From a virus, in IMG/VR virus record IMGVR_UViG_3300028361_000024, positions 3,829 through 67,828 of that record: 64,000 nucleotides of DNA, one strand, 5' to 3'. Under the pieces are notes generated by a model that saw only the letters and a program-made list of their open reading frames with translations, did not search any database and had not been told where the DNA came from. Within the stretch, counting starts at the first letter, position 1; each line of letters opens with the position of its first letter. Both the position numbers and the translations under genes were made by a program. Shown in pieces: positions 3,702-48,791 of the stretch.

Positions 3702-3930
3702 GTTTTATCCTCGCTATTACTTCTGCCGTGTAGTTGCTGTCATTTGTCATGTCCTGATTTTCAGTCACAACCATTTCATAGTTTACGTTGTGACTGACCA
3801 GGTATTCTTCATCTTCAAAATCGGGCTCGCTGTTGCTTCGAAGAAACCCGACAATTAAAGCGTCTGCCTTGCTCCTCAGCTTCTCATGAGAGTCACCAGA
3901 GACTTCAAACTTAAATGTAGTACTAATCAA
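3688..3930 (-). CDS. Hypothetical protein (probable TTG start at 3930)
   Basis: Non-overlapping part of ORF 3688..4047; start overlaps stop of upstream gene. Confidence 0.55.
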   Translation of the reverse strand: MISTTFKFEVSGDSHEKLRSKADALIVGFLRSNSEPDFEDEEYLVSHNVNYEMVVTENQDMTNDSNYTAEVIARIKHGRD

Positions 3931-33200: not shown

Positions 33201-35174
33201 TGCTGGAATCAAGCAAACCAGATTTAAAACAGCTTGGGGGTCGTCATCAGCAACAATAGCCAAGTACATCGGCTTTACATCAGTACTCTCTGGAGTCAGC
33301 ATTCTTGCTTTGCCATCAGCTGCTGCAGTCAGTCCTTCGGCAGAAAGCTTGGTTGGGTCAAACCTACTGTCCCAGGACCTGCGATTTTCTTGGCCTACTA
33401 CTTTGTCGCGAGACTGCTTGTCGTCTACTTTTACCCCAGGGAAGCTTTTTGGTTTGTACCAGCTACCGTATGTCTGTCCAGAGCCTCTGCCAGACTTATC
33501 GCCGTACACAGAATCTAACCAGTCACGAAGAAGTGGCTCGTTGTAGACGTTCTCTGTTGTAGCAGGGCTCCATCCAGGCTTAGCCGTACCATCTGGGTTA
33601 AAAGAGCCCTTGTGGTAACGTCCCAGCGCAGTGTTGATGTCTGGTACAGCCTTAGGAACAAACGGAGGAATTGGGTCACCGTCATACTCAGGGGCTAACC
33701 TTTGGTCTGCAACCCACGAGCCCCAGTCTCTAACTAATGTGCCAACATTTGAAGCGGTTAGTGGTGGAAGGCGGCCAGGCAATTGAGCGTTTGGCTGGTC
33801 GATAGGGACTCTTGGTTCGCCAAGGATTCCAGTAAAATCTAAGTTATTTGCGGGGAAGTTGGCCTGAGATACAGGCTCAAAGGTTTCTACTTTTTGAGTT
33901 GAGCTTCCAGCTACTGTAACTGATTCTCCGTTATTTAACTCAACAGTGACCGTCTTGTCAGTAGGGTTCTGAGATGTAACAACCCCTTGATAGTTAAAAT
34001 CTCCGCCAATCACAACTGTCGAACCGTTTTCTGCGAACCGCCCCAACTTGTCACGAACTTGCGTCTCAGCTCGCGCTGCCCTTTCTTCTGGGGTGTCTAC
34101 TCCTGGGCTTGTATCGACGGAAGACTCCTCAGCAAAAGTTGCGACCCCTGAAGCCATAAGACCGTCGTCGTAGTAGTCCTCTTCTTCCAAGAGGTCAGGA
34201 GTCTCGTCACTGAACTGGTCTAACAACTCAAAGTCAAGTTCTGGCATTGCTGCCTCAAAAAGCTCTGTTTCGTTGAAGTTCAACTGCTTGAGAAATACTG
34301 GCTCCATAGGAGCATTGTCCAACATCGCGGAGCAGGAGATGGCGGTCTCACGGTCTACTGGAACATAGGTTTTTTGGCTTTTATCGTAGGGGTCATCTAA
34401 AGCTTTGTCGTAAGTGATAAAGTCATTTTCAACGTTGCCCATGTCTTCCCACGAGCCGTCATCCCAGACCTTGCAAGTTCCGTCTTCGTCTACTTTGTAG
34501 AGGCGGTCAATCCCGCCACTAGTCAGATTAATTCGGATATAGAAATCAGGCTCTACACCAGTCGCAGCGTAGGAACCATAGTCAACCCTCTGCTCTGCAT
34601 AATATTCGTCGTAGCCCCCAGCCGAAAGGCCTTCTTTGCTATTCTCGCGCTCAACGATGGCTGATGCCCAGCGCTGTGCAGCGTCCCCACCCCAAAGTGC
34701 CCAAGCAATGCGACCATTACTTGGGTAGTTATCCTCAGCTGGCTTGTAGCCTTTGGCTTTTTTGTCTACTTCGTGGCGCGGGAAATACTTAGCAATGTGG
34801 CGAACTTTTTCAATTCCAACTTGACCACCCTTGACAAGACTGCGAGCATTGTTAAGGCCAACGGGAGTGCCTCCCCGCTTCTCTTCTTTACGCCACGCAA
34901 GCCCCCGCTTAGCCTCAGCGATGACAGACTTAGGGATTGTGTACATACGGTCATTAGCCGCAAAAACTCTGATGTCCAGCTCGGTAATCGCGGCCTTGGC
35001 CAACTCTGCTGAGGGGCCTATTGGCTCTTCGATTGAAGCGTCCCACTGGGCTGACGCAACGAGGGTCTCAGTCTCGTCTACGCGAATAATCGTGTTGGAC
35101 ATTACGTCGACAACTACGCCTCTTTCAGCGTCCGTGTACAAAAGTTGATTCCCGTGGCTACCGTGGTATTCCAT
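30264..35174 (-). CDS. 1636-aa head polyprotein containing the capsid maturation protease and several small domains
   Basis: Protease-like EGIETGDGR...LPLLW...GHDG...GVSADMD...PAF (~32150-32570); GRVFGHIA domain; IAWALWGG domain; LRRYW...KIRW domain; DUF6582-like MPDGSFPI domain; directly upstream of MCP. Confidence 0.8.
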   Translation of the reverse strand: MEYHGSHGNQLLYTDAERGVVVDVMSNTIIRVDETETLVASAQWDASIEEPIGPSAELAKAAITELDIRVFAANDRMYTIPKSVIAEAKRGLAWRKEEKRGGTPVGLNNARSLVKGGQVGIEKVRHIAKYFPRHEVDKKAKGYKPAEDNYPSNGRIAWALWGGDAAQRWASAIVERENSKEGLSAGGYDEYYAEQRVDYGSYAATGVEPDFYIRINLTSGGIDRLYKVDEDGTCKVWDDGSWEDMGNVENDFITYDKALDDPYDKSQKTYVPVDRETAISCSAMLDNAPMEPVFLKQLNFNETELFEAAMPELDFELLDQFSDETPDLLEEEDYYDDGLMASGVATFAEESSVDTSPGVDTPEERAARAETQVRDKLGRFAENGSTVVIGGDFNYQGVVTSQNPTDKTVTVELNNGESVTVAGSSTQKVETFEPVSQANFPANNLDFTGILGEPRVPIDQPNAQLPGRLPPLTASNVGTLVRDWGSWVADQRLAPEYDGDPIPPFVPKAVPDINTALGRYHKGSFNPDGTAKPGWSPATTENVYNEPLLRDWLDSVYGDKSGRGSGQTYGSWYKPKSFPGVKVDDKQSRDKVVGQENRRSWDSRFDPTKLSAEGLTAAADGKARMLTPESTDVKPMYLAIVADDDPQAVLNLVCLIPASTGTASPTTFVRRPGEWVKDEQVLADLNSPTPPPVIVLDNENLAIVTEQIDGDAVVASAVVQSHFALTRNTTISALMAAGGADRNKGNAENLRRYWTVGKGGLKIRWNTPGDWTRCNRQLKKYMGPRAKGYCALRHKEMTGVWPGDKKNVGKKKRGSALKASAELQSTPLSTLRSEAQIIEMATLRARAMSAKSKVKGRAGASPTEHGAKFVIPLVIPEGIETGDGRVFQKDSIGMRDLPLPLLWQIKTGNGHDGSVVVGQIISMERTKSGIGNAIGLFDSGEFGKEAERLVRHGFVRGVSADMDKFEADEETTDDTGGDSKSISSGRINITSARVMAVTIVPKPAFQECFIQIVDETSDAEEETMQPDGVYVDNVNPLDASALVACGMVAGAIPNEPPTTWFENPKLKKATPLTIGDDGRVFGHIAAWHVDHIGMAFGTKPPRSRSQYSYFHTGVVRTEEGSDVPVGQLTLAGGHAGLEASAQQAAKHYDDTGSAFADVHAGEDSYGIWVAGSLRSGTTPEQIRAARASAPSGDWRPIKGSLELVAVCQVNVPGFPIARARVASGQVMALVAAGANVLAQLKSDPLAELNAKIDALAVAQSEPLIENARARFAQAREEIRSTNLERMNELSLRVKEAKKKDDESWEYMIQMMDDDPENELAVVPRRIRQRLAREGKAMPDGSFPIRNISDLRNAVRAYGRAKPGAKGAVRKHIMKRARGLNRPDLIPPKWSTKFSENGEELSLRDRAITASGILSMKKSSDSENLEALFTEKGFTAAAGDDENLEDLTPEEVEALKTEKTSRENEDLRPKLTPDTQPRDDSGKFRKVLARLKTDLGIAGLNDAVERAKEIENFDESGDTDQATESAQKLIGFVDRLDAKALNPEALENIRESSGKLGEVIANLPLQFGEESQKIRYSDVPDPLQQLMKDMIERVEAKIGDEDADIATADLKRFMSGGDYFNQSEISAEMSKLLRLLT

Positions 35175-35459: not shown

Positions 35460-35767
35460 TAGGCTTCCTCGCTGTCTTCAGGTTCTGGATTAAGACTTGT
35501 TAAGTTGTCATCTTCTGCTACCTTACGAATGACGTATTTAGCGTCATGTGCTTCAAACTCAATTGTACCGTCTGGGGATATGGTGACATCCTCGCTATCA
35601 ACCAGATAGTCGTATCCATAGTCGCCCATGTCAACCGTAATGTAGTCGTTCTCATCCTCGCTGGAAGCAACAAGAACAGCCCCCAGGATTAGACGTTTGA
35701 AGGTCCCCTCGCTTGTGGATTTCTCTAAAATGCCCACACCCTCGTATACAAGTCGTACGTCTTTCAT
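35459..35767 (-). CDS. Small acidic hypothetical protein
   Basis: 102 aa, TAATG-coupled to giant ORF stop. Confidence 0.75.
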   Translation of the reverse strand: MKDVRLVYEGVGILEKSTSEGTFKRLILGAVLVASSEDENDYITVDMGDYGYDYLVDSEDVTISPDGTIEFEAHDAKYVIRKVAEDDNLTSLNPEPEDSEEA

Positions 35768-38700
35768 TATTTAACTCCAAATAATTCGTTTACGGGCTTA
35801 CCAGCAATTTCTGTAATTCCCTCGCTTGTCAATCGCTCTAGTAAAAACTTTCTGGCAGCTGAGTCAAGCGATATTCCAGATAAATCAGCCCAGCTAAGAT
35901 TGTCCTTAAACAGAACTTCCGACACGTTCGCGCCTTTCAAAAGCTCTAGATAGTCGGTGTCTTCGTACTTTTTACCCCACTCGTCGTAGTTAGAGCCATA
36001 AAACTCTGGGCGACGGATTAGCTGGACTCCATCAAAGAAAAACTCTAGGCCCTTGTACGAACCCTGGTTTAGGTCCATTTTTGGGGTCTTTCGAGTGAAC
36101 ACATACCCTGCGCCAACTCCTGCAAGGTCAGAAGAGCTTGACTGGCCAGAGGTATTTAACCCCTCGGTCCAACGAGTGACTGTGGAGTACAATCCGCCAC
36201 CAGTTTTGAACAGCAAGTCGTAGACAAAATCTGCTCTTGCTTTTTCGTCGCTTGGAAGGTTTCCGCTAGCAAAGTTGTGCTTAAAGAAGCTAACTCCATA
36301 GGTTGCAGCCAGCTGTTCTGCAACCTCTTCGGGAAGCAGGTACTGAATTGCGCCTTTTTGCTGCTCATCTACACGAACCTCCATGTTATCAGCAGTAAAG
36401 TTATAATTTTTCTCTACTTCATCAAGAATTTGCTTACGAAGTTCTCCCTCGTAGTTCTTTGCTCCATTGCCCTTTTTACCAAAAAGCGAAATAATTTTGT
36501 TCTCTGCAACTCCTCGGAAATCTGCTTCTGTGGCGGGGCGGACTTCTTGAACTCCACCAACTTCCTTTATGGCTTCAGCTATCTGCTCTGGAGTTGCGTT
36601 TTCTGGCAAAAGAATTTCTACACGGTTATGGAGCGAAACTGGGCCGTTGCTGGACCCGCCTTTTTTGAAAAAGTCGGGGGTGGTTGCACTGCGATTGGCA
36701 CGAATGAATTGGAACGCTCCGCTGCCCCCAGCAATCTCACCTCGGTAAGTACGGCCCTTGTTGTTGCCATCTACGTTCCCTGTGCTCCACTCTTCGCTAA
36801 ACGTTAAAGAGCCGTCTGCGTTGGTCTTGTACTTGTCTAGCCTCGCGTTATCACTAACGTCTAGGTCCTGCTGCTTAGCTAGTTTTTTGGTGAAAGCGTT
36901 GCCCGCCCAGTTGGTCAATTTAAAGGAAAGACGAATTTGCTTTTTGCCGTCTTTCTCTACTTTCTGAATCCGAACTTTCAGGTCTTCGATGTCCCCAGCG
37001 TCAATCATTACTTGAGAACCATTGGCAGCTTCTAGAGGACTTCCAGCATCCAGCTTAGTAACCGCGCTCTGGAGGCTTGGGACCTGCTCAAGGGGAGTGT
37101 CTCCCCAATTAGCTGGGCCATCGAGAGTCTCCACGGAAAAGCCAGGGCCCTCGACTGTGAACTTATCCGCTAAGTCTTGCTTGGCTTTCTCGATTACGGC
37201 TTTTTTAGCAGATTCTTCTTTTTGCTTCTTTTCTTGCTCTGCTTGGGCGACGGCTTGCTTTTTTGCCTCTTCAGCTTTGGCACCCTGAGCCTTTATGGCT
37301 TCAGCACGAATTGAGTCGTCTACTTCAATTCCCAGCTCTTTGGACTGCTCGTTAGTTAAAAACTTCTCGCGGCTCCATACGTTTTTTTGTTCTAGCTTCT
37401 GAGTAGTGCCTTTCATTGGCCCGTCGAAGTAGGTAACCTCTACGGCAAGTTCATTTGGGAAAGTCTTTGTTACGACACCGTGGCTTGCAAGTTCTGGGTT
37501 TGGCGCGTCTGGGTCTTGGTTAGAAGCAATAATTCCAGGGAGCATATTCTGACCAGTGGACGTTGCGTCTTTCACCAAGTACTTTTTAACAAGGCTTTTG
37601 TATTCGTTCTTATTTGAAGCTCCAAAGTACGAAGTGTGCATCGCAGAGTTCTTGTCTACAGCGACAGATTCAACCTCAGCCAACGTACTTTCTGGAGTAA
37701 GACCACTTGGGGCCACTGCTTCAGCTGGTTGTAACTCTTCTGGCTCGGGCGTAGGCGCTTCAGGCGCTGGTGTCTCGGGAGTAGTTGGTGGGGTTGGTGT
37801 TCCGCCGCCGCCGTCTCCTTCTTGTCCAGGGTCTTGGTCAGGGCCATCCTCAGGGGCTTGAGAGCCTTCAGGCATTAAGAAGGTAGAGGCTTTCCAGTTT
37901 GCCTTTGACTGTCCTTCAAATTTAACTTTTGCAACGTCTGTGTAGGTGTAGGTCTTGCCTCCAGCTTTCACAACGTACTGGTCCTTAAGGGAGGTAACAA
38001 CCCCCTTCTTGCCTGTCTTGGTATCAGTAACTGTCATCCCAACCTGAATAACGGTCGTGCCGTCTGCTGAAACGTAAGACTCCTGCTGCTTAGGGGGCAT
38101 GGATGGCTGAATAGTGGAGGCGGTCTCTTTTTTGGACCCAGCGAGAATCTTTGCAGGGAAGGCCTTGCTCTTGTAGATTTCGTTATTTATCCGACTGTTT
38201 AGGGCGGTAGATGAGTGCCAGCGACCTTTCAGCTCTTTAACCCTAGTGACACCCGTTTCTTCGTCTGTAATGCGGTGGTAGGTGCTAAATGTGTTGTCGG
38301 AGTTACGTTTTACTAAAACGTCAAAACGCTTATTGTTAAATTTGGTAGAAGAGACAACAATGTGTCCGTTGTCTAGAGTGCTAGCACTGTAGTCTTCGAT
38401 AACCTGCGCCCAAATTAAGTCAGGGTCAGTTGGGTTCGCAAGTTCTTTGGCAAGCTCGTCGAGGTCAATTTTCGAGACCGCGTCTGTAGGAATATCCTCG
38501 TCGCCATCTACGGGAGTAAGTGCCTGCTCTAAATCATCAGTTATCTTTTCCTCGGGAGTTGCCTTTGGAGTAGCTGCTGGTGCAGGGTTAGTCAAGTCAT
38601 TGAGAATGGACTCAACAAGCTCTGGGTCCTCTACTTCGTTGTCTTTGAAGCCTTGTAGTAGCTGCTTAATCTTTTCTGGGTCTTTGCTGCCGAACAAAGC

Positions 38701-41700
38701 TTCAGCTATGTTCTCAACCTTTTGTACAAGTTTTTGCTTCTGGTCTTGAGGCACCTCAGTGGGCTTTACAGACTCGACGGGCTCGGCTTGAGGGTCAAGG
38801 GTTATCTCGTCAGATGGCTGAGGGGTTGCCACGCTTGGCTCCGATGCCTGAGGGGCAGCATCGTTTTCTTGTTCCATCTTTGTAAGGTTGTAGGTGTAGA
38901 ACTTTCCATTAGGAAGTGTCCCAACAACGTTAACGTTTCCGTTTTTGGCGGTCTTCACTTCTGCTGGGGAAAGGTCTACTGTTTTGCCGTTGTACTTAAA
39001 GACAATGTTGTTTCCAGTAGCGATTGCATCCTGAATTTGAGCATCAAGGTCGTCAATCAAATCTTCTGGGTCTATGTCGTCAAGTGAAAGAAGTACCTTG
39101 TCTGGACCATCCTCTGAAGCAATAGGGGCTTCGATTGGCTCATCGTCAAGTCCATATATCTCAATAAGCTCTTTACGACGACGCTTCAAGTTCTCCTTGA
39201 GGCTGTTCGCAATTGATTGACTGCTAATTCCATCGATTCCGCCAGCAAAGGCCTCATCTACTAATTCATCAATCTTGGCTTCGTCAATATTTGCAACGAG
39301 CTTTGCTGACTCGCCAATCTCGGCGTCGGTCATGTCTCCGAATACGCTTGCTGTCTGGGAGTTAACATTTGAATCGCGAAGTGAGCTAATCTGCTCTGCG
39401 ACATTTGTATCCAGCTCTTTGGCCTTGTCAGCTCCCTGAGCACGGAAGAGCAGTGCACCACCAGCGTCAATACGGAAAGGCTTGGCGTTGGCAACAACAA
39501 TGTTGTCCTTCTCAAGGCCGATGACATCGTAGTTGTTGAGCCATGCGTCAACCGCAAAACCCTTTTTGATTTCGTCAGTGATGTTTTGGTTAGGTGCAAT
39601 CTGACCGAGAGTTCCGTCGGTTCCATCAATGACGGGAGAGACTATAACAATTTTGCCAGCCTTGTTTTTCCCGATGTAGGCACGCCCGACAGCCAAGCCA
39701 GCCTCTTCATACAGCGCAGAAGCAAGAACTTCATTAGCTGCGTGAGCTTCGGTCTTTGGGGTCTTGACGTAATACTGTTGCCCACTGTCTGGGTCGACAT
39801 AGAATGCTCCCTGATTTGACCCAGCTTGCCCTGAAACTTTTTTCCAGTTAGAGGTGTCAAAGACTTGACCCAATGAGCCGCTCTGTACCTCAGGGATAAC
39901 AATTTCATCAGGCTCAGCTGTCGTAGGCTCGTCGAGCGCAAGGCCCAAGAGAACATCTGCGGTGTCTGCAAAGTTGTCCTGAAGAGTGCCTTGAGAAGCC
40001 ATCTTGCTAATTTGGTCAGCAGTGAACCAACCAACCTCAGAGCTTTCTCCATCTTTCGGTGACAAGTCGTTTAGCTGGCCTGGTCCCACCTCGAAGACAT
40101 GAGTGTTGTATGTCCAACCAGGAGCAACTTCATTAGCAAACTGACCGACTGGGAGAACGGAGTCTGGTCCTAAGTCGCCGCCAACTTCTTCTTCAAATTC
40201 GTTGATTGCAGTGATAATGCCGTTATTTTCTTCGGAGTCACTCTTATCCTTGTGGGCACCCCCTGGGTATCCCCACTTTCCGCCCCCCTGCGAAAGCCCA
40301 GAGGAGCGCTTTGCTAGGAAGTACTCAAAGACGCCCTCGTTGTTCTTACGGCGAACTAGAGCGCCAGCAGCGCCAAACTTGCCCCAGAAACGCATTCCAT
40401 TTGTAGCAAAGAAGTAGCCATCACCTTGGTCGGGCTTATTGCCGCCACCTATCGGAGCAAAGAACGGCAACTGAGGGGGAGTCATCACGCCGCTTCGTAG
40501 CTTCTGAACATCAGAGCTAGAAATTCCGTCAGCATAGTAGACACCGTCAGCATCTTGCTTAATGTCGTAGGTCTGCCACTTTTCAATGGTAGCTTCTGTG
40601 TCGACGTTAGGGGCTGCTTCCTCAAGAACAGGGGCCTCAACTTCGCCATTGCGTCGTCTAATACCGTAAGCCTGGAACTTTACCCAAGACTTGTTCATAC
40701 CGTACTCTTTGCCATTGGCAAGCAAGCGTCGCCTTACAAAGACTTTGTTTGGGTCAGCTGGGTCATCGAGAATCTCAAGAACTTCAAACCAGCCCTCTGA
40801 TGGGGCACTTACGAAGTCCCCTACCTGCCACTCCTCAATAGCAACCTTGCCAAGTGATGTGGTGTTCTCGTTGTCCTCTACCCAGTTATTTGAGATGGAG
40901 TCGCCTAGTACTGATTCAATTGCTAGGTCACCGTCTGCCAAGTCAGACTTGGTTGCAGCTGTAGCAGAGGTAGCTTCGTCAGAAGTTGGGCGGACCTTAG
41001 GCATTGACTTTACAATCTCGTCAACTGTCGCAATTTTGTTGTCACCATCAAAAGCATCCTGGATAACTTTAGAAACAGCAAGGCTTGTGTCAGCGAGGTC
41101 TTTCTTGCCTTGAGCCGCCTTGAACTCTGCAAGCTCCTCTTCGTACTTTTGCATGTTGGCGTCAACGTCAAGAGCTGAGATTCCTTGATTGGTCTTAGCC
41201 ATCTCCTGCATAAGGTTCTTCAGAATCGAAGGGAGAACATCGCTATCAGTTACTGCATCGTGCCAGTCACCATCAGGAACAATTCCGTAGCGGTTTGCAA
41301 CACTCTGAAGAGTGTGAGCACCGTTTCCTCCGTTAATAACAAGGCGGGCTAGCGATAGAGTGTCTACCTCTCCGCTTGGGCTGTAGTTGAGGCCAAACTT
41401 TTGAGCGAAGCGCTTCATAATGCCACCATCAAACGGCAAGTTATGCGCTAGAACAATTGTGTCAGGGCCAATCTTTTCAAGAAGCTTTGTCATCTGCTCT
41501 TCTAGAGAAGGCTGCTTTGCCAAGAACTCATCTGAGACTGGATTACCAGAGGGGTCTTTTAGTGTTTTGTCTGGGTCAGCTTTTTTATAGAAATCTCCAA
41601 GTGGTACTTCTGGATTCATCCAGTAAGCACCAGCAGCGGTTGCCAGACCATCGTCAATTTTGGTCCATGCAACTTGAATAGGTGTTTGGCTGTCAAATGC

Positions 41701-44700
41701 GCCATCGGCTGCGGTCTCAAAGTCAAGATAGATTATCTCTTCTTTTTCAAGGAGCTCTAGGAACTTTATAGGGTCGCCAGCTGCTTCAACTTCAATCTGC
41801 TTAAGCTTTTCCCCAGAGAATGCTGGAGAGGCAGGAGCCTTTGGCTTAGAGGGAGTTTTTTTCTTAGGCTTGTCAGTGTCGCCTGTTTGAGCAGTTGAAA
41901 CGGAGTCTGGGTCAATTGGAGGAGTAAAGCCCTCTGCGGAGAGTTTCTTTGCAGCTTTGAACGCCGCTTTCTTTTCTACTAAGTCTGGGTCATCTTTTTT
42001 AGGACGCTCAAGAGCTGGAGCGTTTCCAGGGGCTGGCAAATCAGAAGCACCACGCATAACCGTAATTTCAGTTGTAGCGTTCCACTCTTTTGTCTGAGAG
42101 ACGTGCCCTGGGTAGTACCCCTGAACAACGGCCTTTCCGTCTACCTCTTCTACGCCTTCAATAATGAAGTACTCGTAAAAATCAGAACCCCACTCTTTTT
42201 TGAAAGTGACGTCTCCAGCTTTAACTTCTGTAGCCTTAACCGTGGTTACACCAACGGGGTTCGCTGGGCTAAAGGGTGAAGCAACTTCTTCGGTCTGCCA
42301 CACAGCAAGAGTCTCGGTGTCAGGTGCAGTCCATAGCCCCTGAGCTTGCGCAAGGTTTTTGTTGTACTCGTCTAGGGCATCAAGAAATTTACTACGCGCT
42401 TCTGCGTCCTTAGGAACAAAGGCCCCTAAGTTTGTGTCGTTAAAAATCTTGCCTTCGGGGTCAAATTCTTTTGGCTTTGGCTTAGATAGAGTTGGGAGGT
42501 CCCCCTTTGCGGGGACCTCTACATTACGGTAAACTTTAATCTGAACATTCTTGTTCCAGAGCTTGGTCTTCTGAGTCTGGTGCCCAGGGTAGTATCCCTC
42601 AATCCAAACGCTTCCTGGCTTCTGTGCCTCGGAGTCGGCGTCGGAGAATACATTCTCAATTACAAAGTTGTCAGAGAACGTAATGTCTCCTGCTTTGAGG
42701 TTCTCGGCGCTGGCGCTTAGGAGGGCTGGTCCGTCTGGTTCTCCTGTAAAGATTCCTGGGGTAGCTGTTCCTGCTCCACCATCATCAGCGGTGTCTGCTG
42801 CTTGGTCTTGCGAGTCCTCTGTAGGCGGTTGCGGGGCTTCGGCTGTAGGTTCTTGGACCTCGGGGGCATCTTCGAGGGATTCGTCTTCTTGGACATTTTC
42901 TCCTTCAAGAGCATCCTGAACCTCTTCGGGAGTCGGCTCGTCGGAGCTCTGCCCTTTAAGGCCTTCTTGGTAGATATTGTCTATTAATTCGTCAGTGTCC
43001 ACGCCCTGCAACTGCAGAGCGTCACGAATTGCTTCAGCTGGGACGTTTGCTAGGTACTGCTCTCCCTCGGGAGTGTCCATACCCAAGATTCCATAGCCTG
43101 GGGTTGCGGTTCCTGGCTCTAGGGCACGACGAAGCTCCGTAACAAGCTCATCGTTTTTATAGTCATTGGCAATGTCAACTGGGTTGACAGAAAAGCCTTC
43201 AGGCGCATCTTGCGGAGTATCGCCTTCAATTTCATTAAAAGGCGCATCGTCGATTGAGGAATAGCCCTCTGGAACCTCAGATTCTTCGTAAACCTTATTC
43301 TTTGGGAGATATGACTTATAGTCACCCGAATCTAGGAACGCCTTCTGCTCGTCCTCGGTCATCCCCTCAATAATCGGAGGAAGGGTTTTGTTAGAGGGTG
43401 TGGCCTTAGCTGCATCAGGAATCTCTTCGCCCAAGGATTCTTCAGTTGCCTTAGGAACTTTGGTACCTAAGTCGCCAGTACCGCCCTTATAGATATCGTC
43501 AAGAATGGCTTTAGCATCTTCGCCTTTTTCGTTGAGCGCTTCATAGATAGCTTCAACGGGAACGGGCTCGGTCCCATCGGAGAAAGGCAGATACCCAAAA
43601 CCAGTGCCAGACTGCTCCTCAGTGCCAGCAACACCCTCGTTGAGGGCCGTGGCTAAGTCTTTGGTCGAATACTCTTCGGAAAGCTGTGAAGGGTCGTCTG
43701 TGTAGTCTTCTGAGATTTGATTATCAACAGCACCCTGTGGCTCGTAAGGGGCGTCTGTGTTCCATGAGTAAAAGTTTTCGGGAGTGGTCCCTGTTTCTGG
43801 TGAAGCCTCGGTCTCGTCTGCGGGAGACTCTTCTTGATTTTGAGTGCCCTGCTCGTCAAAGTCATCCAGCCAAGCGTCAGGGTTGGCATTTCCAAGAGAG
43901 TCACGAAGAACGCGTCCCGTCTCGGAATCAATAACAGTTCCGTCGTCCATCATAAAGTGGTCGCGGGTTGGGTCTAGAGGGAATTCGCCGCCCTCTTCTT
44001 TAAACTTTTTTAATTTTCTCCGATAAGCGGTCTGTTTTACCTTAGAAGCGTTAGCGTCTCCAGGAATCTCTTGACCGTCGAAATCGGCGATGTCAACTTT
44101 ATCGCCAATCTGAAGTTCTGGGTCAAGCAGTCCCGCTGCCCTTTCGGGGCGCTGTGGGTCAGCTGGGTCGCCTGCTTCGTAGAGGTCTTCGTCCTTAGAG
44201 ATAAAGCTTTGAACATCTCCCCAAGACTGAACAGTGGCAAATTCCTTTTCCTTGCCATCTTTACGACGGACAAAGTAAACAGGCAGAGTTGGGTCGAGCT
44301 CTCCGTTTTCGCCCATACCTAAAGCAACGACATTGTTGCCTTCAGCCTCTTTTTGCTGCTGGGCTTCGAATTTATGCATTGCCGCAACGTTATTTCCGTT
44401 GTCGAACTTTACAATTTCGTAATTATCGTTATCGTCGACGAACCTAGTTCCAAGGTCAATATTTGGGCCGTAGTAGTCAAGGTCATCCTGCGTAGGCTTG
44501 AAAGAAGGGTCTTTTGCGTAACCGTCGGGGGAGTCTACAAATTCTAGGTCTGCTTCATCAATCACATCACTGTCAGCTGAAGATTTGGCGGGAGTCTTGC
44601 TAAATCCCTGGGCATCCTGTTGACTAGGGAGAATAGCCTTAACGGACTTACCAGCAGAGGCTGGTGTCCTAATGAGCCTGCCATCTGGGAGCTCTTGGAT

Positions 44701-45393
44701 AAAAGTTTTATTGCTGGGGTTCGTCGAAACGATACGACCAGCAAGCCACGAAACGCCTCCACCTATGCGACGCACTAGCCTACGAAGGCCTCCGCCCATG
44801 TTGGAGAATTTACCTTCGCTGTCTCGAAGCTGGAAGCGCCAGAAGCCTTTGTTACCGCCCATTTTGAATGCCGCAACTAGGGCAATCAAAGGGACCTTAC
44901 CTGGGCCCATAGCATTTAGACGAGCAACAGCGTACTGCTGAGCAGGACTCCCTGGCTCAGAGGCAAAGGCGGACGCAAGAAGCGGACCAACCAAAGGGTC
45001 TGTTACGCGAGAGTCGTCGGCGAACCAACGCGCTTGAGCCTTGCGAAGCTCTTTCCAATCCATCGAAGTCTTGCGAGTGGAGCGTGGGTGTGCAAGGGAG
45101 AGTAAGTCGGTATGTGCGGCGGCAGTGATTACTTTGTCCTGCTGAACTAGAGCAGCAAACTCCGAGAGCTCAGAAAAAGCGCGGTGGCGACGGACAGAGT
45201 AGCTCTCGTCTGCGCTCTTGATGAGAGAACGTGTGGCGACTTTTTTGGCCATTCCAGACGTGATTCGACGTGTACCACGATGCGCGCCATTAAGGTCTGC
45301 AAGAGAGTCAATAGCGTCGCGAATAATGTTCGCGTCCTGCTCTGCAACAGACAGTACGTGTGTTGCTGGTTTGGTTGGGTGGTTGCTACTCAT
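35767..45393 (-). CDS. Giant (~3208 aa) multi-domain head-module protein: DEDDh exonuclease, Nudix, HipA/PI-kinase-like, WYL-like and ART-like domains
   Basis: Single uninterrupted ORF; YLDFET/AHNLPFD/WHDAVTD; WGYPGG..EFEEEVG; GSN..YYVK..NEVLA..DAWLNNYD..RIDAG; probable ATG at 45393 after GAGAGG. Confidence 0.88.
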   Translation of the reverse strand: MSSNHPTKPATHVLSVAEQDANIIRDAIDSLADLNGAHRGTRRITSGMAKKVATRSLIKSADESYSVRRHRAFSELSEFAALVQQDKVITAAAHTDLLSLAHPRSTRKTSMDWKELRKAQARWFADDSRVTDPLVGPLLASAFASEPGSPAQQYAVARLNAMGPGKVPLIALVAAFKMGGNKGFWRFQLRDSEGKFSNMGGGLRRLVRRIGGGVSWLAGRIVSTNPSNKTFIQELPDGRLIRTPASAGKSVKAILPSQQDAQGFSKTPAKSSADSDVIDEADLEFVDSPDGYAKDPSFKPTQDDLDYYGPNIDLGTRFVDDNDNYEIVKFDNGNNVAAMHKFEAQQQKEAEGNNVVALGMGENGELDPTLPVYFVRRKDGKEKEFATVQSWGDVQSFISKDEDLYEAGDPADPQRPERAAGLLDPELQIGDKVDIADFDGQEIPGDANASKVKQTAYRRKLKKFKEEGGEFPLDPTRDHFMMDDGTVIDSETGRVLRDSLGNANPDAWLDDFDEQGTQNQEESPADETEASPETGTTPENFYSWNTDAPYEPQGAVDNQISEDYTDDPSQLSEEYSTKDLATALNEGVAGTEEQSGTGFGYLPFSDGTEPVPVEAIYEALNEKGEDAKAILDDIYKGGTGDLGTKVPKATEESLGEEIPDAAKATPSNKTLPPIIEGMTEDEQKAFLDSGDYKSYLPKNKVYEESEVPEGYSSIDDAPFNEIEGDTPQDAPEGFSVNPVDIANDYKNDELVTELRRALEPGTATPGYGILGMDTPEGEQYLANVPAEAIRDALQLQGVDTDELIDNIYQEGLKGQSSDEPTPEEVQDALEGENVQEDESLEDAPEVQEPTAEAPQPPTEDSQDQAADTADDGGAGTATPGIFTGEPDGPALLSASAENLKAGDITFSDNFVIENVFSDADSEAQKPGSVWIEGYYPGHQTQKTKLWNKNVQIKVYRNVEVPAKGDLPTLSKPKPKEFDPEGKIFNDTNLGAFVPKDAEARSKFLDALDEYNKNLAQAQGLWTAPDTETLAVWQTEEVASPFSPANPVGVTTVKATEVKAGDVTFKKEWGSDFYEYFIIEGVEEVDGKAVVQGYYPGHVSQTKEWNATTEITVMRGASDLPAPGNAPALERPKKDDPDLVEKKAAFKAAKKLSAEGFTPPIDPDSVSTAQTGDTDKPKKKTPSKPKAPASPAFSGEKLKQIEVEAAGDPIKFLELLEKEEIIYLDFETAADGAFDSQTPIQVAWTKIDDGLATAAGAYWMNPEVPLGDFYKKADPDKTLKDPSGNPVSDEFLAKQPSLEEQMTKLLEKIGPDTIVLAHNLPFDGGIMKRFAQKFGLNYSPSGEVDTLSLARLVINGGNGAHTLQSVANRYGIVPDGDWHDAVTDSDVLPSILKNLMQEMAKTNQGISALDVDANMQKYEEELAEFKAAQGKKDLADTSLAVSKVIQDAFDGDNKIATVDEIVKSMPKVRPTSDEATSATAATKSDLADGDLAIESVLGDSISNNWVEDNENTTSLGKVAIEEWQVGDFVSAPSEGWFEVLEILDDPADPNKVFVRRRLLANGKEYGMNKSWVKFQAYGIRRRNGEVEAPVLEEAAPNVDTEATIEKWQTYDIKQDADGVYYADGISSSDVQKLRSGVMTPPQLPFFAPIGGGNKPDQGDGYFFATNGMRFWGKFGAAGALVRRKNNEGVFEYFLAKRSSGLSQGGGKWGYPGGAHKDKSDSEENNGIITAINEFEEEVGGDLGPDSVLPVGQFANEVAPGWTYNTHVFEVGPGQLNDLSPKDGESSEVGWFTADQISKMASQGTLQDNFADTADVLLGLALDEPTTAEPDEIVIPEVQSGSLGQVFDTSNWKKVSGQAGSNQGAFYVDPDSGQQYYVKTPKTEAHAANEVLASALYEEAGLAVGRAYIGKNKAGKIVIVSPVIDGTDGTLGQIAPNQNITDEIKKGFAVDAWLNNYDVIGLEKDNIVVANAKPFRIDAGGALLFRAQGADKAKELDTNVAEQISSLRDSNVNSQTASVFGDMTDAEIGESAKLVANIDEAKIDELVDEAFAGGIDGISSQSIANSLKENLKRRRKELIEIYGLDDEPIEAPIASEDGPDKVLLSLDDIDPEDLIDDLDAQIQDAIATGNNIVFKYNGKTVDLSPAEVKTAKNGNVNVVGTLPNGKFYTYNLTKMEQENDAAPQASEPSVATPQPSDEITLDPQAEPVESVKPTEVPQDQKQKLVQKVENIAEALFGSKDPEKIKQLLQGFKDNEVEDPELVESILNDLTNPAPAATPKATPEEKITDDLEQALTPVDGDEDIPTDAVSKIDLDELAKELANPTDPDLIWAQVIEDYSASTLDNGHIVVSSTKFNNKRFDVLVKRNSDNTFSTYHRITDEETGVTRVKELKGRWHSSTALNSRINNEIYKSKAFPAKILAGSKKETASTIQPSMPPKQQESYVSADGTTVIQVGMTVTDTKTGKKGVVTSLKDQYVVKAGGKTYTYTDVAKVKFEGQSKANWKASTFLMPEGSQAPEDGPDQDPGQEGDGGGGTPTPPTTPETPAPEAPTPEPEELQPAEAVAPSGLTPESTLAEVESVAVDKNSAMHTSYFGASNKNEYKSLVKKYLVKDATSTGQNMLPGIIASNQDPDAPNPELASHGVVTKTFPNELAVEVTYFDGPMKGTTQKLEQKNVWSREKFLTNEQSKELGIEVDDSIRAEAIKAQGAKAEEAKKQAVAQAEQEKKQKEESAKKAVIEKAKQDLADKFTVEGPGFSVETLDGPANWGDTPLEQVPSLQSAVTKLDAGSPLEAANGSQVMIDAGDIEDLKVRIQKVEKDGKKQIRLSFKLTNWAGNAFTKKLAKQQDLDVSDNARLDKYKTNADGSLTFSEEWSTGNVDGNNKGRTYRGEIAGGSGAFQFIRANRSATTPDFFKKGGSSNGPVSLHNRVEILLPENATPEQIAEAIKEVGGVQEVRPATEADFRGVAENKIISLFGKKGNGAKNYEGELRKQILDEVEKNYNFTADNMEVRVDEQQKGAIQYLLPEEVAEQLAATYGVSFFKHNFASGNLPSDEKARADFVYDLLFKTGGGLYSTVTRWTEGLNTSGQSSSSDLAGVGAGYVFTRKTPKMDLNQGSYKGLEFFFDGVQLIRRPEFYGSNYDEWGKKYEDTDYLELLKGANVSEVLFKDNLSWADLSGISLDSAARKFLLERLTSEGITEIAGKPVNELFGVK

Positions 45394-46561
45394 CAAAGCC
45401 CTCTCGTGGGAGCAAGTCAGCATCTAGACTATCGTGTGCAAGGATTGCGAGAAGCTTTGCCCTTGTGTAGGGGTCTTCTCCATTTCGTAGACCGCGAAGC
45501 CAGCTTGCTCTAATAGCAGGCTCTGCTTCGTAGCCAAAATCTGAAAACTCGGTCAAAGCAAGAATTGCTTCTTCGGCACTGGCAAAAGTGTTTTCTGCGG
45601 GCAGCTCGATTTCGAGTTCTGCCTCTGCGTACTCAGATGCAGCTGAAAGCTCTAACTCGGAGTGCAGCTGAGCGTCTGCGGTCAAGGACTCAATAGACGA
45701 GTCCTTCTTTGTGGACCTTGGGTGGGAAGCGGGAAGTAGGTCGTTGTCCTGCACATAAGCAGCCTTAGAGGGCTTGCCTGAGGAAAGCAAACGCAGGAAA
45801 GCGTTAACGCGAGCAAGTGCCCAAGAGTTTCGGTTCTGTCCAGGTCGGAAGCTTGTGGAGAAAGCCCCAGCTCCGCGGCGGTAGACAGCCTTTAGCATCC
45901 CAAGAGTTGCGCGGCGTCCCTTAGATGCTTTTTTGTTGTGGGTCTCAACCTTATTGGAAAGAGCTTTTTCTACGGCCTTTGAAAAGGTAATTTTCTTACT
46001 GCCAGAAGCCGAGCCCTTTTTGTTCTTTGAAGAGCCTTTTATTTGGTCCTTTTTGGGAGCAGGAGTCTGGGCAGCAGTGCGCTTCTTTTTAGCTGCAGCT
46101 TCGTCATCGTGGTCAGAGTCCAACATAAGATTTCCGTCTGGCATGTAGTGATAACCTTCGGGAGCTTCTGGTCTTGGGGCATTCTCTTCATGTGCCGAGT
46201 CTGGCATCAGTTCGCCGTCTGGCATGTAGTGGAAGCCCTCGGGGGCAGCTGGTCTGTTCTCAGCGGCAAACGTTGCAGCTTCGGCGATAGCTGAAGTAGT
46301 AGCAGGGACGCAGTTGGGGACTTGATTGCCGTTTTTGCCTTTTTTGGTGCCTACTTGGACGTAGCCGTCCCAGCAGGGGCTGTTGGAAAGCTCTTCGGAT
46401 GCATACTCTTGTCTGATGCTCTTGCGAAGTTCGTGAACTTCATTCTCCAAGGTCGACAAAGTACGGATAAGAGCATTCTTATCCGAAACTCTGACTGAGC
46501 TGGTTGGCTTAGGGGTAGGCGCATGGCTCTGACCCCCTCCCAGCTCTCCTCGGGATTCCAT
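45386..46561 (-). CDS. Head-module protein with CWDGY motif, two HYMPDG repeats and a DUF5824-like domain
   Basis: PCWDGY...PNCVP; APEGxHYMPDGxLMxDSxH twice; LKAVYRRGAGA...RPG...WALARVNAF. Confidence 0.75.
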   Translation of the reverse strand: MESRGELGGGQSHAPTPKPTSSVRVSDKNALIRTLSTLENEVHELRKSIRQEYASEELSNSPCWDGYVQVGTKKGKNGNQVPNCVPATTSAIAEAATFAAENRPAAPEGFHYMPDGELMPDSAHEENAPRPEAPEGYHYMPDGNLMLDSDHDDEAAAKKKRTAAQTPAPKKDQIKGSSKNKKGSASGSKKITFSKAVEKALSNKVETHNKKASKGRRATLGMLKAVYRRGAGAFSTSFRPGQNRNSWALARVNAFLRLLSSGKPSKAAYVQDNDLLPASHPRSTKKDSSIESLTADAQLHSELELSAASEYAEAELEIELPAENTFASAEEAILALTEFSDFGYEAEPAIRASWLRGLRNGEDPYTRAKLLAILAHDSLDADLLPREGFDE

Positions 46562-46563
46562 AC

Positions 46564-47046
46564 TTAGTAAGCTCCGCCCAAGCCCTTTAGGTGAGAGCGC
46601 AACTGCCACTGCCACATCATGTGAACGTCAATGCGCCCAGAGTAGAAATCGCTAGTGCCATATTCGCAGGCCTTCTCGGAAAGCTCGTAGCCTCTTTTGA
46701 GGTTCTCAAGAAACACCTGGTTAGAGTCATACAAATCCTGAACCATGTCACGAACAGTTGAGCACTCTGTCATAGGGTCTTGGATATTCGACATCTTTAA
46801 GAATTGGTGCAAAGTGAACGGAGCTTTTACATCCATCTTGCGGATGCTCTCTGCCATAGGGTCAATCGAGTCTTGAACCTCTTCGTAGATTTCTCCAAAG
46901 AATCTGTGGAACTCGCTGAAGTCTGAGCCTTCGACATTCCAGTGATGCCCCTGAGCCTTAAATGTAAAAACAACAGCGTTTCCTAGGTTGCAGGCGAGGT
47001 TGTTTACAAGCTCCATGCGTACATCATCTTTTTTCATACCATGCAT
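46564..47046 (-). CDS. dps: Dps-family (mini-ferritin) protein
   Basis: KAQGHHWNVEGSDFSEFHRFFGEIYE...IDPMAESIR ferroxidase signature, terminal WQL. Confidence 0.9.
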   Translation of the reverse strand: MHGMKKDDVRMELVNNLACNLGNAVVFTFKAQGHHWNVEGSDFSEFHRFFGEIYEEVQDSIDPMAESIRKMDVKAPFTLHQFLKMSNIQDPMTECSTVRDMVQDLYDSNQVFLENLKRGYELSEKACEYGTSDFYSGRIDVHMMWQWQLRSHLKGLGGAY

Positions 47047-48791
47047 TAGTTAGTGCCCCCTTCAGGTGCGGCTTCCTCTGTTACAGGTGCAGGTTCTCCT
47101 GCAGCTGCTCTTTTCAAGACCTCTTCAACGTCGGGAGGCAGAGGAGCAACGGATTGCCCCTGCTGAGCCGACCGAACGGCATTCATAATCTCTGGAGAAA
47201 TCGCCCCAAGCATTGCTTCGGTAAGTTCTGGTGTAAGTGCGCCCTTTTCCTGAAGCAAACGTACTGCAACTTCAGTAGGGGTAGGAGCATCCTGGTCTGA
47301 GAAGCCGTGTGCGCGCCGCCAGGCGTCGTAAGACACTGCCCCGCGGTCGAAGCCTGCATCAGCATCTGAGGCCCTGTCGTTGCGTGTGGAGACCGCTGAA
47401 GGGTCATACCAAACAGTAATACGGCTAACATCTATGTCTGAGTAGCCATTTGCAATCAAATATGGGCGCAAATAGACAACTGTGAGGGCGTCAACAATCA
47501 AAAGCATCAACGGTTCGATGTGCGCTTTGTACAACGCTTCATCAATTTGTAGAGCGTTGGAGTACTTTACGTTAGCCAAGCCTGTAACAACGTCCTTAGG
47601 AACGTCAAGGCCCTGCAGGATGCGCTCCAGAACGCGGTCGGAACGCTCAGCAAGTGCTGGGTCAAACGAACGCTCAAACTTGAACTGCTTGATAGCATCG
47701 CCAAGCTCGGCTGGTCCACGAATAATCAGAGGAACCACGGCAGATGCGGACTCTTCGTCACGAATCGGCGTGGTCATAGCGTCAATTAGCTGCTCTTCAA
47801 ACTCATCTTCTGCTTCCTCGGCAGTAAATCCCGTCCCGATTCCATCCTCAGAGTCGTAAGGATAGTCAGGGTCGCCCTGAGCAGCCACAGATAGACCGTC
47901 AGGAAGATAAAGCGCGCCAGCGTTAAGGCGAGAGCGAGCAGTTGCACGGAATGTCCTGTTCAGTAGAAGGAGTTCGGCACAAAGGTCAAGGAGCCCACGC
48001 AAGCTTGAGTCGGACTCATCCGAATAACGAGGGTGTGAGCGCCAGATACGGCCAACAAAAGCGTTCTTGCCTAAGTTGACAACTCCTTCGCGACCTCCTC
48101 CTCCCGACCCAGAGCTCTGCTCTCGACGACCGATAACGGTGTAGTTACCGCGAGCGTCAGTTATTACCTCGTCAACGGAGCGGATGTCCCAAGATTCAGG
48201 CTCTCCAGTTCCTTGACGGGCTGGCATCTGAACTAGGTAGCATTCGCCAGTGACGGCAAGGTTAAGAGCGGCGTCTTTTAAAAGTCCAGGCTGTCCGCCG
48301 TACGCCGAGTTAAGTCGCAAAAGAGCGCGTTCTGCAGCAGCAGCAAGTGCTGGGTCCACTGAGCGAGACTCGCTTGCGGAAACGGGGGCCTGACTTGGGT
48401 CGTCAATTGCAGCCGCGAAGATGCGGATACGAGAGACAACGGATGCTACAAGATTAAAAGCGTATTTGATTTCGCCAATTGCGTCGTAGTATTCCCATGC
48501 TTCGCCCTGCCATGCAGATGAGGAAGCGGAACGTCGAGCCTTAAACTGCTCGAACTCGCCCTTGTCGTTCATTTTTACTTGCGAGGCTGCAGCCGTCAGG
48601 GCGCGGGGGGCGTTATAGGCAACTGGAGGAGGGCTGTTGAAGAAGACGGGTGAGCCTGTCGGCTGAGGCGTCCTGGCGTTACGAACATTCTGATTTGAAC
48701 GGGAGGTGGCTTTATTCTTAGCGGGCTTTACAGGCGTCGCTTTAGCCTTTGGAGCCTCTGGCGTTGGCTCTTCTCTATTAAATACACCCAT
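47046..48791 (-). CDS. Portal protein
   Basis: WQGEAWEYYDAIGEI, RIWRSHP, ARSRL..G.L, SAVVP, GLDVP, VWYDPS typical of actinophage portals; head module position. Confidence 0.85.
   Translation of the reverse strand: MGVFNREEPTPEAPKAKATPVKPAKNKATSRSNQNVRNARTPQPTGSPVFFNSPPPVAYNAPRALTAAASQVKMNDKGEFEQFKARRSASSSAWQGEAWEYYDAIGEIKYAFNLVASVVSRIRIFAAAIDDPSQAPVSASESRSVDPALAAAAERALLRLNSAYGGQPGLLKDAALNLAVTGECYLVQMPARQGTGEPESWDIRSVDEVITDARGNYTVIGRREQSSGSGGGGREGVVNLGKNAFVGRIWRSHPRYSDESDSSLRGLLDLCAELLLLNRTFRATARSRLNAGALYLPDGLSVAAQGDPDYPYDSEDGIGTGFTAEEAEDEFEEQLIDAMTTPIRDEESASAVVPLIIRGPAELGDAIKQFKFERSFDPALAERSDRVLERILQGLDVPKDVVTGLANVKYSNALQIDEALYKAHIEPLMLLIVDALTVVYLRPYLIANGYSDIDVSRITVWYDPSAVSTRNDRASDADAGFDRGAVSYDAWRRAHGFSDQDAPTPTEVAVRLLQEKGALTPELTEAMLGAISPEIMNAVRSAQQGQSVAPLPPDVEEVLKRAAAGEPAPVTEEAAPEGGTN

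Follow-up and report, generated by a model that had tools for sequence, protein, structure and literature searches.

A diverged DUF5824 domain opens the two-part leader of a giant phage polyvalent protein, a candidate label for head cargo

Selection of very large effector proteins for packaging into the phage head is, to our knowledge, known only in a few model phages, through the targeting sequence of T4, the Dar system of P1, and MuF. What a giant protein encoded among head genes carries at its N-terminus, and whether this could take it into the head, is the question raised by a 64,000-nucleotide stretch of DNA (the window; positions 3,829 to 67,828 of the IMG/VR virus record IMGVR_UViG_3300028361_000024), which is part of a 67.8-kb record estimated to be 51% complete and comes from an uncultured freshwater phage. 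The giant gene (35767-45423, on the minus strand like every window feature given below; open reading frame (ORF) of 3218 amino acids, database start M11 at 45393) follows a gene for a DUF5824 protein (45386-46615; longest ORF 409 amino acids), for which the ATG at 46561, giving 391 amino acids, is the likely start because relatives of 392 amino acids cover 95%. The initial annotation of the window proposed that the giant begins with a degenerate copy of its neighbour's DUF5824-like domain, and that this is a shared address domain, which loads different cargo into the prohead in functional replacement of MuF and is then removed at an ALVAA site. Here, the homology is borne out, and a role in head incorporation appears plausible, judging from homology, N-terminal position, synteny, and the proteins to which DUF5824 is fused.

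Both peptide strings that had been quoted for the two proteins were found in the translations, and they map to 45701-46021 in the upstream gene and 45058-45318 in the giant, which fits the range of 45070-46000 first assigned to the pair. By BLASTP, the upstream protein and the first 300 amino acids of the giant share 25 of 73 residues (34%), with an E-value of 4e-4. Using hhalign, 29 giant N-termini matched 120 upstream-family proteins at 95.5% (E 1.4e-8), and the comparison of hidden Markov models (HMMs) that the initial annotation had proposed as a check gave 96.2% over 88 columns (E 2.4e-9) between two independently built profiles, one of 33 giant N-termini translated from IMG/VR loci (A2) and the other of 45 upstream-family database proteins (A1). 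When hhalign was rerun locally, the real pair scored 78.5, compared with 11.4 for the reversed control and no more than 17.5 for any of 20 column shuffles, all controls having E >= 0.22. Across IMG/VR loci, upstream proteins are matched by the HMM of giant N-termini with E-values between about 1e-5 and 1e-10, and many giants by the upstream HMM with E-values between 1e-3 and 4e-7; against the giant inside the window alone, the latter HMM reaches only E 0.038.

A chance or compositional resemblance without common origin would suit the pairwise E-value, which is only 4e-4, as well as the failure of the Pfam model on the giant's copy, for which no family was returned at E <= 10 and the DUF5824 model matched 0 of the 33 giant N-termini at E <= 0.1. 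However, the profile-profile E-values from independently built alignments (1.4e-8, 2.4e-9, and 2.8e-10) stand against reversed and shuffled controls that rule such a resemblance out, the family HMMs match each other over dozens of loci with a motif in register, and one relative (P0194) carries both forms side by side, combining canonical DUF5824, the giant-type helical part, an RDxxGRF motif, and ArdC/MPTase in one chain. We regard a chance origin as extremely improbable. On the evidence of these profile comparisons, residues ~36-122 of the giant are a diverged paralogue of the upstream DUF5824 domain.

The DUF5824 label, which the initial annotation had given to the upstream gene, was right, as the protein matches Pfam DUF5824 (PF19141) above the gathering score (E 3.5e-8; 34.1 bits versus a cut-off of 25; residues 199-292), with 36.1 bits in the genome search. 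The accompanying remark that giant viruses have the domain too found no confirmation, as every Atlas cluster shown was from Uroviricota. The canonical domain (residues 199-306; 45701-46021) ends in a DNDLLPxxHPRSTKK motif and, in the AlphaFold2 (AF2) model, contains four helices at residues 213-293, with predicted local distance difference test (pLDDT) values of ~72-91 by block. It carries a net charge of +26 over residues 176-305 and ~45 invariant positions, mostly polar, with an invariant core of RRGAGA..S.SHRPG..R..W..R.N. The DLLPxxHP-type motif occurs twice in the upstream protein, the second time as a DADLLP motif at the C-terminus (45407-45424), which is nearly invariant across the family. 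As well, residues ~80-170 hold a DUF3721-type PCWxGY..VPNCVP motif and two HYMPDG repeats; the PCW motif is also found at the start of some giants (P0148 and P0151) and accompanies DUF5824 in portal and protease fusions. Some relatives of the upstream protein (L010 3131-5077, L029 1279-2874, and L074 4101-5999) have extra Cys-rich modules of the GKFxxDxxG..CxNCxF..C..EGKCRF or CPPATQDI... type, and L010 has a stretch that is ParB-like by eye, while a weak ParBc_2 match was found in a different relative, L076.

The fate of this domain in the giants was followed with the A2 profile, which was run against 1.84 billion cluster representatives and matched 475 protein clusters at E <= 1e-3 and 223 at E <= 1e-30. 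The leader is strictly N-terminal, with the match starting at residues 1-37 in all of the 150 best hits of the 475. Comparison of A2 with A1 shows that the RRGAGA..SHRPG core and most of the positive charge have been lost from the giants' copy, which is only mildly basic, and that what the giants mainly keep is the terminal motif DLLPxxHPxST, with DLLP..HP present in 119 of the 150 representatives listed. In the window, this motif, common to canonical DUF5824, reads DLLSLAHPRSTRK (45070-45108), with S for the usual P; the form DLLS..HP was found in 2 of the 150. The same motif lies in register in the upstream family and in the giant family, and "degenerate copy" seems a fair description of the giant's DUF5824 domain.

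The DUF5824 copy is only the beginning of a longer leader of ~290 residues, which consists of two parts, A and B, the copy making up the first ~90 residues of part A. Part A (44863-45348, delimited by hhalign and the AF2 model; its first portion, 45058-45318, is the diverged copy) is an all-helical module. In the AF2 model built on A2, the helices of part A span residues 16-177 (numbered from M11) with block pLDDT values of 73-95, mostly 80-95, and are followed by a linker at residues 179-186 with pLDDT <50 and then by a beta-rich module at residues 202-290, with strands at 202-286. Part B (44524-44883, delimited by AF2, HMM, and hhalign) comprises ALVAAF, a Gly linker, an RDxxGKF motif with a run of glycines behind it, and a small beta-rich domain. 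In Pfam terms, the upstream protein is a bona fide member of DUF5824, and part A of the giant is a remote homologue, which keeps the C-terminal DLLPxxHP.

Part B brought a second homology, beyond the single one of the initial annotation. Its HMM matched one other protein in the window, the prohead-protease fusion protein (30264-35174; 1636 amino acids), at E 5.7e-9, the copy lying at residues 365-433 (33876-34082), and hhalign of six relatives of the protease protein against A2 gave 98.0% over 68 columns (E 3e-13). Since part A corresponds to the upstream DUF5824 protein and part B to the protease fusion, both halves of the leader are paralogous to segments encoded by head genes nearby. Of the 150 leader representatives listed, 144 contain the RDxxG[RKQ]F motif, and in the six-frame translation of the window, RDxxGRF-type motifs occur only in the giant (one), the protease fusion (two, of the RDxxG(R/K)F form, near residues 372 and 1476), and a 149-amino-acid ORF (one).

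The A/B boundary is marked by ALVAAF (44866-44883), which is the last helix before the low-confidence linker in the AF2 model. A similar ALVAAG (31476-31493; residue 1229) stands at the C-terminal end of the protease domain of the fusion protein and all 6 aligned relatives keep it as ALVAAGA, and in loci where the leader is split, the cargo gene begins a few residues before the ALxAAF helix. These observations are suggestive only: ALVAA may be a putative protease site, as had been supposed, or a coincidence between two conserved helices. Three further candidate relationships were rejected. A phrog_2859-type domain, which opens both the protease fusion protein (residues 68-183) and a DUF5824-protease-capsid fusion of Roseobacter phage CRP-831, was not borne out as a third copy of DUF5824, since hhalign returned E 0.5 with A1 and 0.051 with A2; giant residues 108-178 (from M11) did not align convincingly with upstream residues 318-409 (hhalign E 0.28); and RDxxGRF is not regularly placed ahead of canonical DUF5824, since none of 120 near-length proteins contains it, and in the 19 of 120 long proteins that do, it is never located in the 500 residues preceding the core.

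Behind the leader, the cargo varies. Leader-bearing proteins are 181-7,004 amino acids long, with a median of 2,670, although the short ones may be contig-end fragments. Among 29 closer relatives, Pfam domains included RNase_T in 20, ArdC-N in 6, ADP-ribosyltransferase in 2, DUF3626 in 2, and PI3/4-kinase in 1, with none in 7, and 5 of the 6 relatives with ArdC-N also possess MPTase-PolyVal and UvrD-type helicase domains. The giant of the window carries two distinct effector-type domains, namely an RNase_T (DnaQ-like) exonuclease domain (41242-41730; PF00929, E 3e-8 to 3e-10) and a NUDIX domain (40003-40371; PF00293, E 1.7e-5, 25.2 bits versus a cut-off of 21.1), with some 2,400 residues outside any assigned domain, and its gene lies between the portal gene and the protease and capsid genes. 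An ESM Atlas search with part A of the giant gave no usable hit. The idea of one shared domain on different cargo was upheld as far as the leader stands at the very N-terminus of many giants whose enzymes vary, while the loading itself is inferred. By domain content and gene position, the giants qualify as polyvalent proteins as defined by Iyer et al. 2017 (PMC5512222). There, ArdC-N and MPTase-PolyVal are given as hallmarks of transferred polyvalent proteins, and polyvalent proteins found among virion genes or fused to MuF or portal are argued to be packaged and injected (PMC5512222). The Pfam scans found neither ArdC-N nor MPTase-PolyVal in the window's giant, and these domains are present in 6 of the 29 leader-sharing relatives.

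The partners of canonical DUF5824 were then surveyed, as the initial annotation had proposed, and turned out to be portal, MuF, prohead protease, capsid protein, and enzymes. The family is large: of 8,000 candidates scored, at least 2,724 proteins of near length reached E <= 1e-3, and 618 longer proteins did so as well. In the 120 long proteins listed of these 618, Ferritin was found in 22 and a portal domain in 20 (Phage_portal 15, Phage_portal_3 3, and Portal_Mu 2), followed by XkdF-type (S78_2) prohead protease in 5, MuF in 4, ArdC-N with MPTase-PolyVal in 3, DUF6582 in 3, ADP-ribosyltransferase in 1, and inorganic pyrophosphatase in 1. Ten long proteins were rescanned for domain order, and the arrangements include portal-MuF-DUF5824, portal-DUF3721-DUF5824-MuF, DUF3721-DUF5824-protease, DUF5824...ArdC-MPTase, and Ferritin...DUF5824. 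The Roseobacter phage CRP-831 has, immediately behind its portal gene, a single gene that combines a phrog_2859-type domain with DUF5824, S78 protease, and capsid protein, and Salinibacter phages have a 934-amino-acid DUF5824 protein ahead of the capsid gene. Structure matches in BFVD include proteins named prohead protease and XkdF. From these fusion partners, the company kept by DUF5824 is that of the capsid interior. The name "DUF5824" was not mentioned in the literature searched, the family being without a described function, and a function as a head-interior module is what the present result points to as a proposal.

Gene neighbourhoods support a working connection between the pieces. They were examined in 80 loci, the best of at least 577 retrieved with the upstream family, and because they are the best of these, the sample is biased to close relatives. 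The next gene begins with parts A and B in 58 of the 80 loci, and a portal gene lies upstream in 67. Only part A was found in 2 (possibly at a contig end) and only part B in 1. Taken together, the ways in which these genes are fused and split argue for joint action of the DUF5824 protein, part A, and the cargo headed by part B.

Several findings weigh against a simple address function of the leader. Parts A and B are separate genes in 3 of the 80 loci, and in one further locus (L074), part A is fused to the DUF5824 protein and the cargo gene then starts at part B. According to these split loci, part A is not an obligatory cis tag on the cargo, and it is part B that is always joined to it. The DUF5824 gene is present without a giant (neither part) in 15 of the 80, some of them outside an obvious head context. 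Canonical DUF5824 also has no fixed place: its core was found anywhere along 119 long proteins, and in the portal fusions an address would be redundant. With its charge of +26 and ~45 invariant positions, the domain resembles one that binds a ligand or nucleic acid, and not a simple docking tag. Thus, the absence of a fixed position, together with the strongly basic character and the invariant polar residues, suggests that DUF5824 may be a working domain and not only an address. In addition, no solved structure explains the fold. Foldseek against the PDB found nothing at E <= 1e-3 with either AF2 model, the A1 profile had 0 hits among PDB sequences at E <= 1, and the wide VIA-align search reached a best Z of 5.6 with the upstream model and of 6.2 with the leader model of the giant, which is below the level trusted for helical bundles. 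Among the best weak matches of both models was sigma-factor region 2 (residues 199-300 and 12-96, respectively; Z 5-6), and part B weakly matched small barrels of the Tudor/KOW-like type; these too are below the trustworthy range. A complex prediction of upstream residues 190-409 (A1) with giant part A residues 1-180 (A2) scored 0.00 and, made without controls, speaks neither for nor against an interaction. The claim of a shared address domain is consequently retained in part: homology and head-gene company favour it, and the separability of part A from the cargo and the lack of a bound position for DUF5824 count on the other side.

These same findings would suit another division of labour, in which part B, an RDxxGRF-plus-glycine header, is the real loading or processing label, and DUF5824 and part A represent a working basic helical domain, probably one that binds nucleic acid, which would act on packaged DNA or on a host target, either inside the head or once ejected; the DUF5824 copy of the giant would then be a decayed remnant serving as an adaptor or a spacer. 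It would explain why the cargo gene starts at part B where the leader is split, why part B is common to the prohead protease protein, and why its motif is so frequent in the leader family and so restricted in the window, and it would be in line with the charge and invariant RRGAGAxSxSHRPG-type core of canonical DUF5824, which the giant's copy has lost, as well as with the weak sigma-factor matches. However, part A is kept at the N-terminus of the cargo in the 58 loci mentioned above and in all 150 representatives listed, which indicates that it is under selection there; DLLPxxHPxST is just the portion conserved in the giants, which argues for a shared partner and not for decay; and the structural matches are weaker than can be trusted for helical bundles. 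That part B is the sole label we consider possible, though somewhat doubtful. The two readings, the leader as an address and part B as the label, overlap, by analogy with SPP1 gp7, which binds both portal and DNA.

It may also be asked whether the giant enters the virion at all. It could be a late cytoplasmic multi-enzyme protein, in which the shared domains do other tasks, for example in a cytoplasmic complex with the products of neighbouring genes. Packaging is here a prediction from the genes, and the DUF5824 loci without a giant would agree with such a role, as would some DUF5824 genes located away from head genes, which adjoin an M23 peptidase gene or have a weak ParB-like match. Against this, the position of the giant gene between the portal gene and the protease and capsid genes is conserved, the prohead protease protein contains a copy of part B as well, fusions join DUF5824 to portals, MuF, and proteases, and relatives carry the ArdC-N and MPTase-PolyVal domains that are named as hallmarks of transferred polyvalent proteins in PMC5512222. 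A purely cytoplasmic giant is, in our view, unlikely.

Returning to the leader as an address, we consider the chances evenly balanced that it places the giant inside the procapsid. In such a scheme, the leader would load the giant into the procapsid, the conserved DLLPxxHP would allow part A and the upstream DUF5824 protein to bind a common partner or each other, part B would act as a label shared with the protease, which is itself necessarily co-assembled, and the enzymes would be carried in the head and delivered with the DNA. More broadly, DUF5824 and the RDxxGRF-headed part B might constitute a MuF-independent modular capsid-loading system, widespread in uncultured tailed phages, in which DUF5824 (stand-alone, portal-borne, or protease-borne) would be the dock, part A the adaptor, and part B the label admitting strings of enzymes of up to ~7,000 residues, with the A/B joint cut by the prohead protease to free the cargo. 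This wider scheme is put forward tentatively, as a proposal that we doubt more than we trust. In any case, at least 475 clusters of giant multi-enzyme proteins from uncultured phages bear the leader. If the leader directs packaging, it would provide a sequence handle for injected anti-defence enzymes in metagenomes and, in laboratory systems, a candidate tag with which to fill phage capsids with foreign proteins.

The head genes of the window are arranged on the minus strand in the order portal, Dps-like protein, DUF5824 protein, giant, two small genes, protease fusion, and capsid protein. The portal protein (47046-48791; 581 amino acids) matches the phrog_776 portal at E 8e-106, and its gene has 76.5% nucleotide identity to the portal gene of Actinomycetia phage DSL-LC01, the nearest named relative, whose genome was assembled from a metagenome. 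Matches of the protease fusion protein to head maturation protease and related PHROGs cover residues 858-1291, and phrog_2859 matches residues 68-183. The major capsid protein (27918-30101; phrog_777, E 1.6e-77, residues 167-714) has a long N-terminal extension. The 8-nt overlap ATGAGTAG at 45386-45393 contains both the M11 start codon of the giant and the stop codon of the upstream gene, which suggests translational coupling of the two. The capsid extension of ~300 residues is very acidic, the giant has a net charge of -214, and the canonical DUF5824 domain has +26 over 130 residues; an electrostatic match between the acidic capsid extension or giant and the basic DUF5824 is possible.

The Dps/ferritin-like gene (46564-47046; 160 amino acids; PF00210 Ferritin, E 2.9e-18) lies between the portal gene and the DUF5824 gene. 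As Ferritin and DUF5824 are one protein in the 22 of 120 long relatives mentioned above, the Dps-like protein may belong to the head-interior set. Phage ferritins have been read as a defence of the host against reactive oxygen species, and in freshwater actinophages ADP-ribosyltransferases and ferritin have been discussed as host-benefit genes (PMC6802176); DUF5824 is not named in the passages of that paper that were consulted. In DSL-LC01, DUF3626 is encoded by a separate gene between the portal gene and the DUF5824 gene (L001 14129-15529), and in the relatives P0148 and P0151 it is a domain within the giant; on domain content, this is a further case of cargo moving between stand-alone genes and the giant. 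Moreover, a "high potential iron-sulfur protein" is annotated adjoining the giant of DSL-LC01.

Among known systems, the closest likeness is to MuF (SPP1 gp7 and Mu gp30). MuF genes usually occupy the post-portal position, which is where the leader and DUF5824 genes are found, and in both cases a conserved N-terminal module is followed by variable enzymes, the module is also fused to portals, and the inferred route is packaging followed by ejection. The two differ in that the leader here is bipartite, both parts being paralogous to stretches encoded in nearby head genes, and has no PF04233 match. MuF (PF04233) had no match at E <= 1 in the record of the window, 51% complete as it is, or in 5 of 5 complete relatives, and Pfam scans of the upstream protein and the giant found no MuF. 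The proposal that the domain functionally replaces MuF accordingly holds in position for this lineage, where a post-portal gene is found with no MuF match, but 4 of the 120 long proteins listed hold both, and since DUF5824 and MuF stand elsewhere in single polypeptides, they are not simple substitutes for each other.

Two further systems offer partial parallels. In T4, the internal proteins and Alt carry a capsid-targeting sequence (CTS) of ~10 residues, which is removed by the gp21 prohead protease. Like the CTS, the leader is an N-terminal element common to unrelated head cargo, but it is predicted to be folded and is ~290 residues long, not ~10, and a cleavage such as occurs in T4 is only conjectured for it. 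In phage P1, DarB needs DarA/Hdf for incorporation into the head. As in that Dar system, a very large enzyme cargo is accompanied here by separate small head proteins encoded nearby, which may be adaptors, a pattern that suits the DUF5824 protein and part A where they stand alone, although the adaptor role is deduced here only from gene fusions and fissions. The available portions of the polyvalent-protein survey mention the packaging of Alt, as well as DarB and DdrB, and a description of the leader was not seen in them (PMC5512222). The theme itself of polyvalent proteins and MuF is known, and what is new is the variant of it described here.

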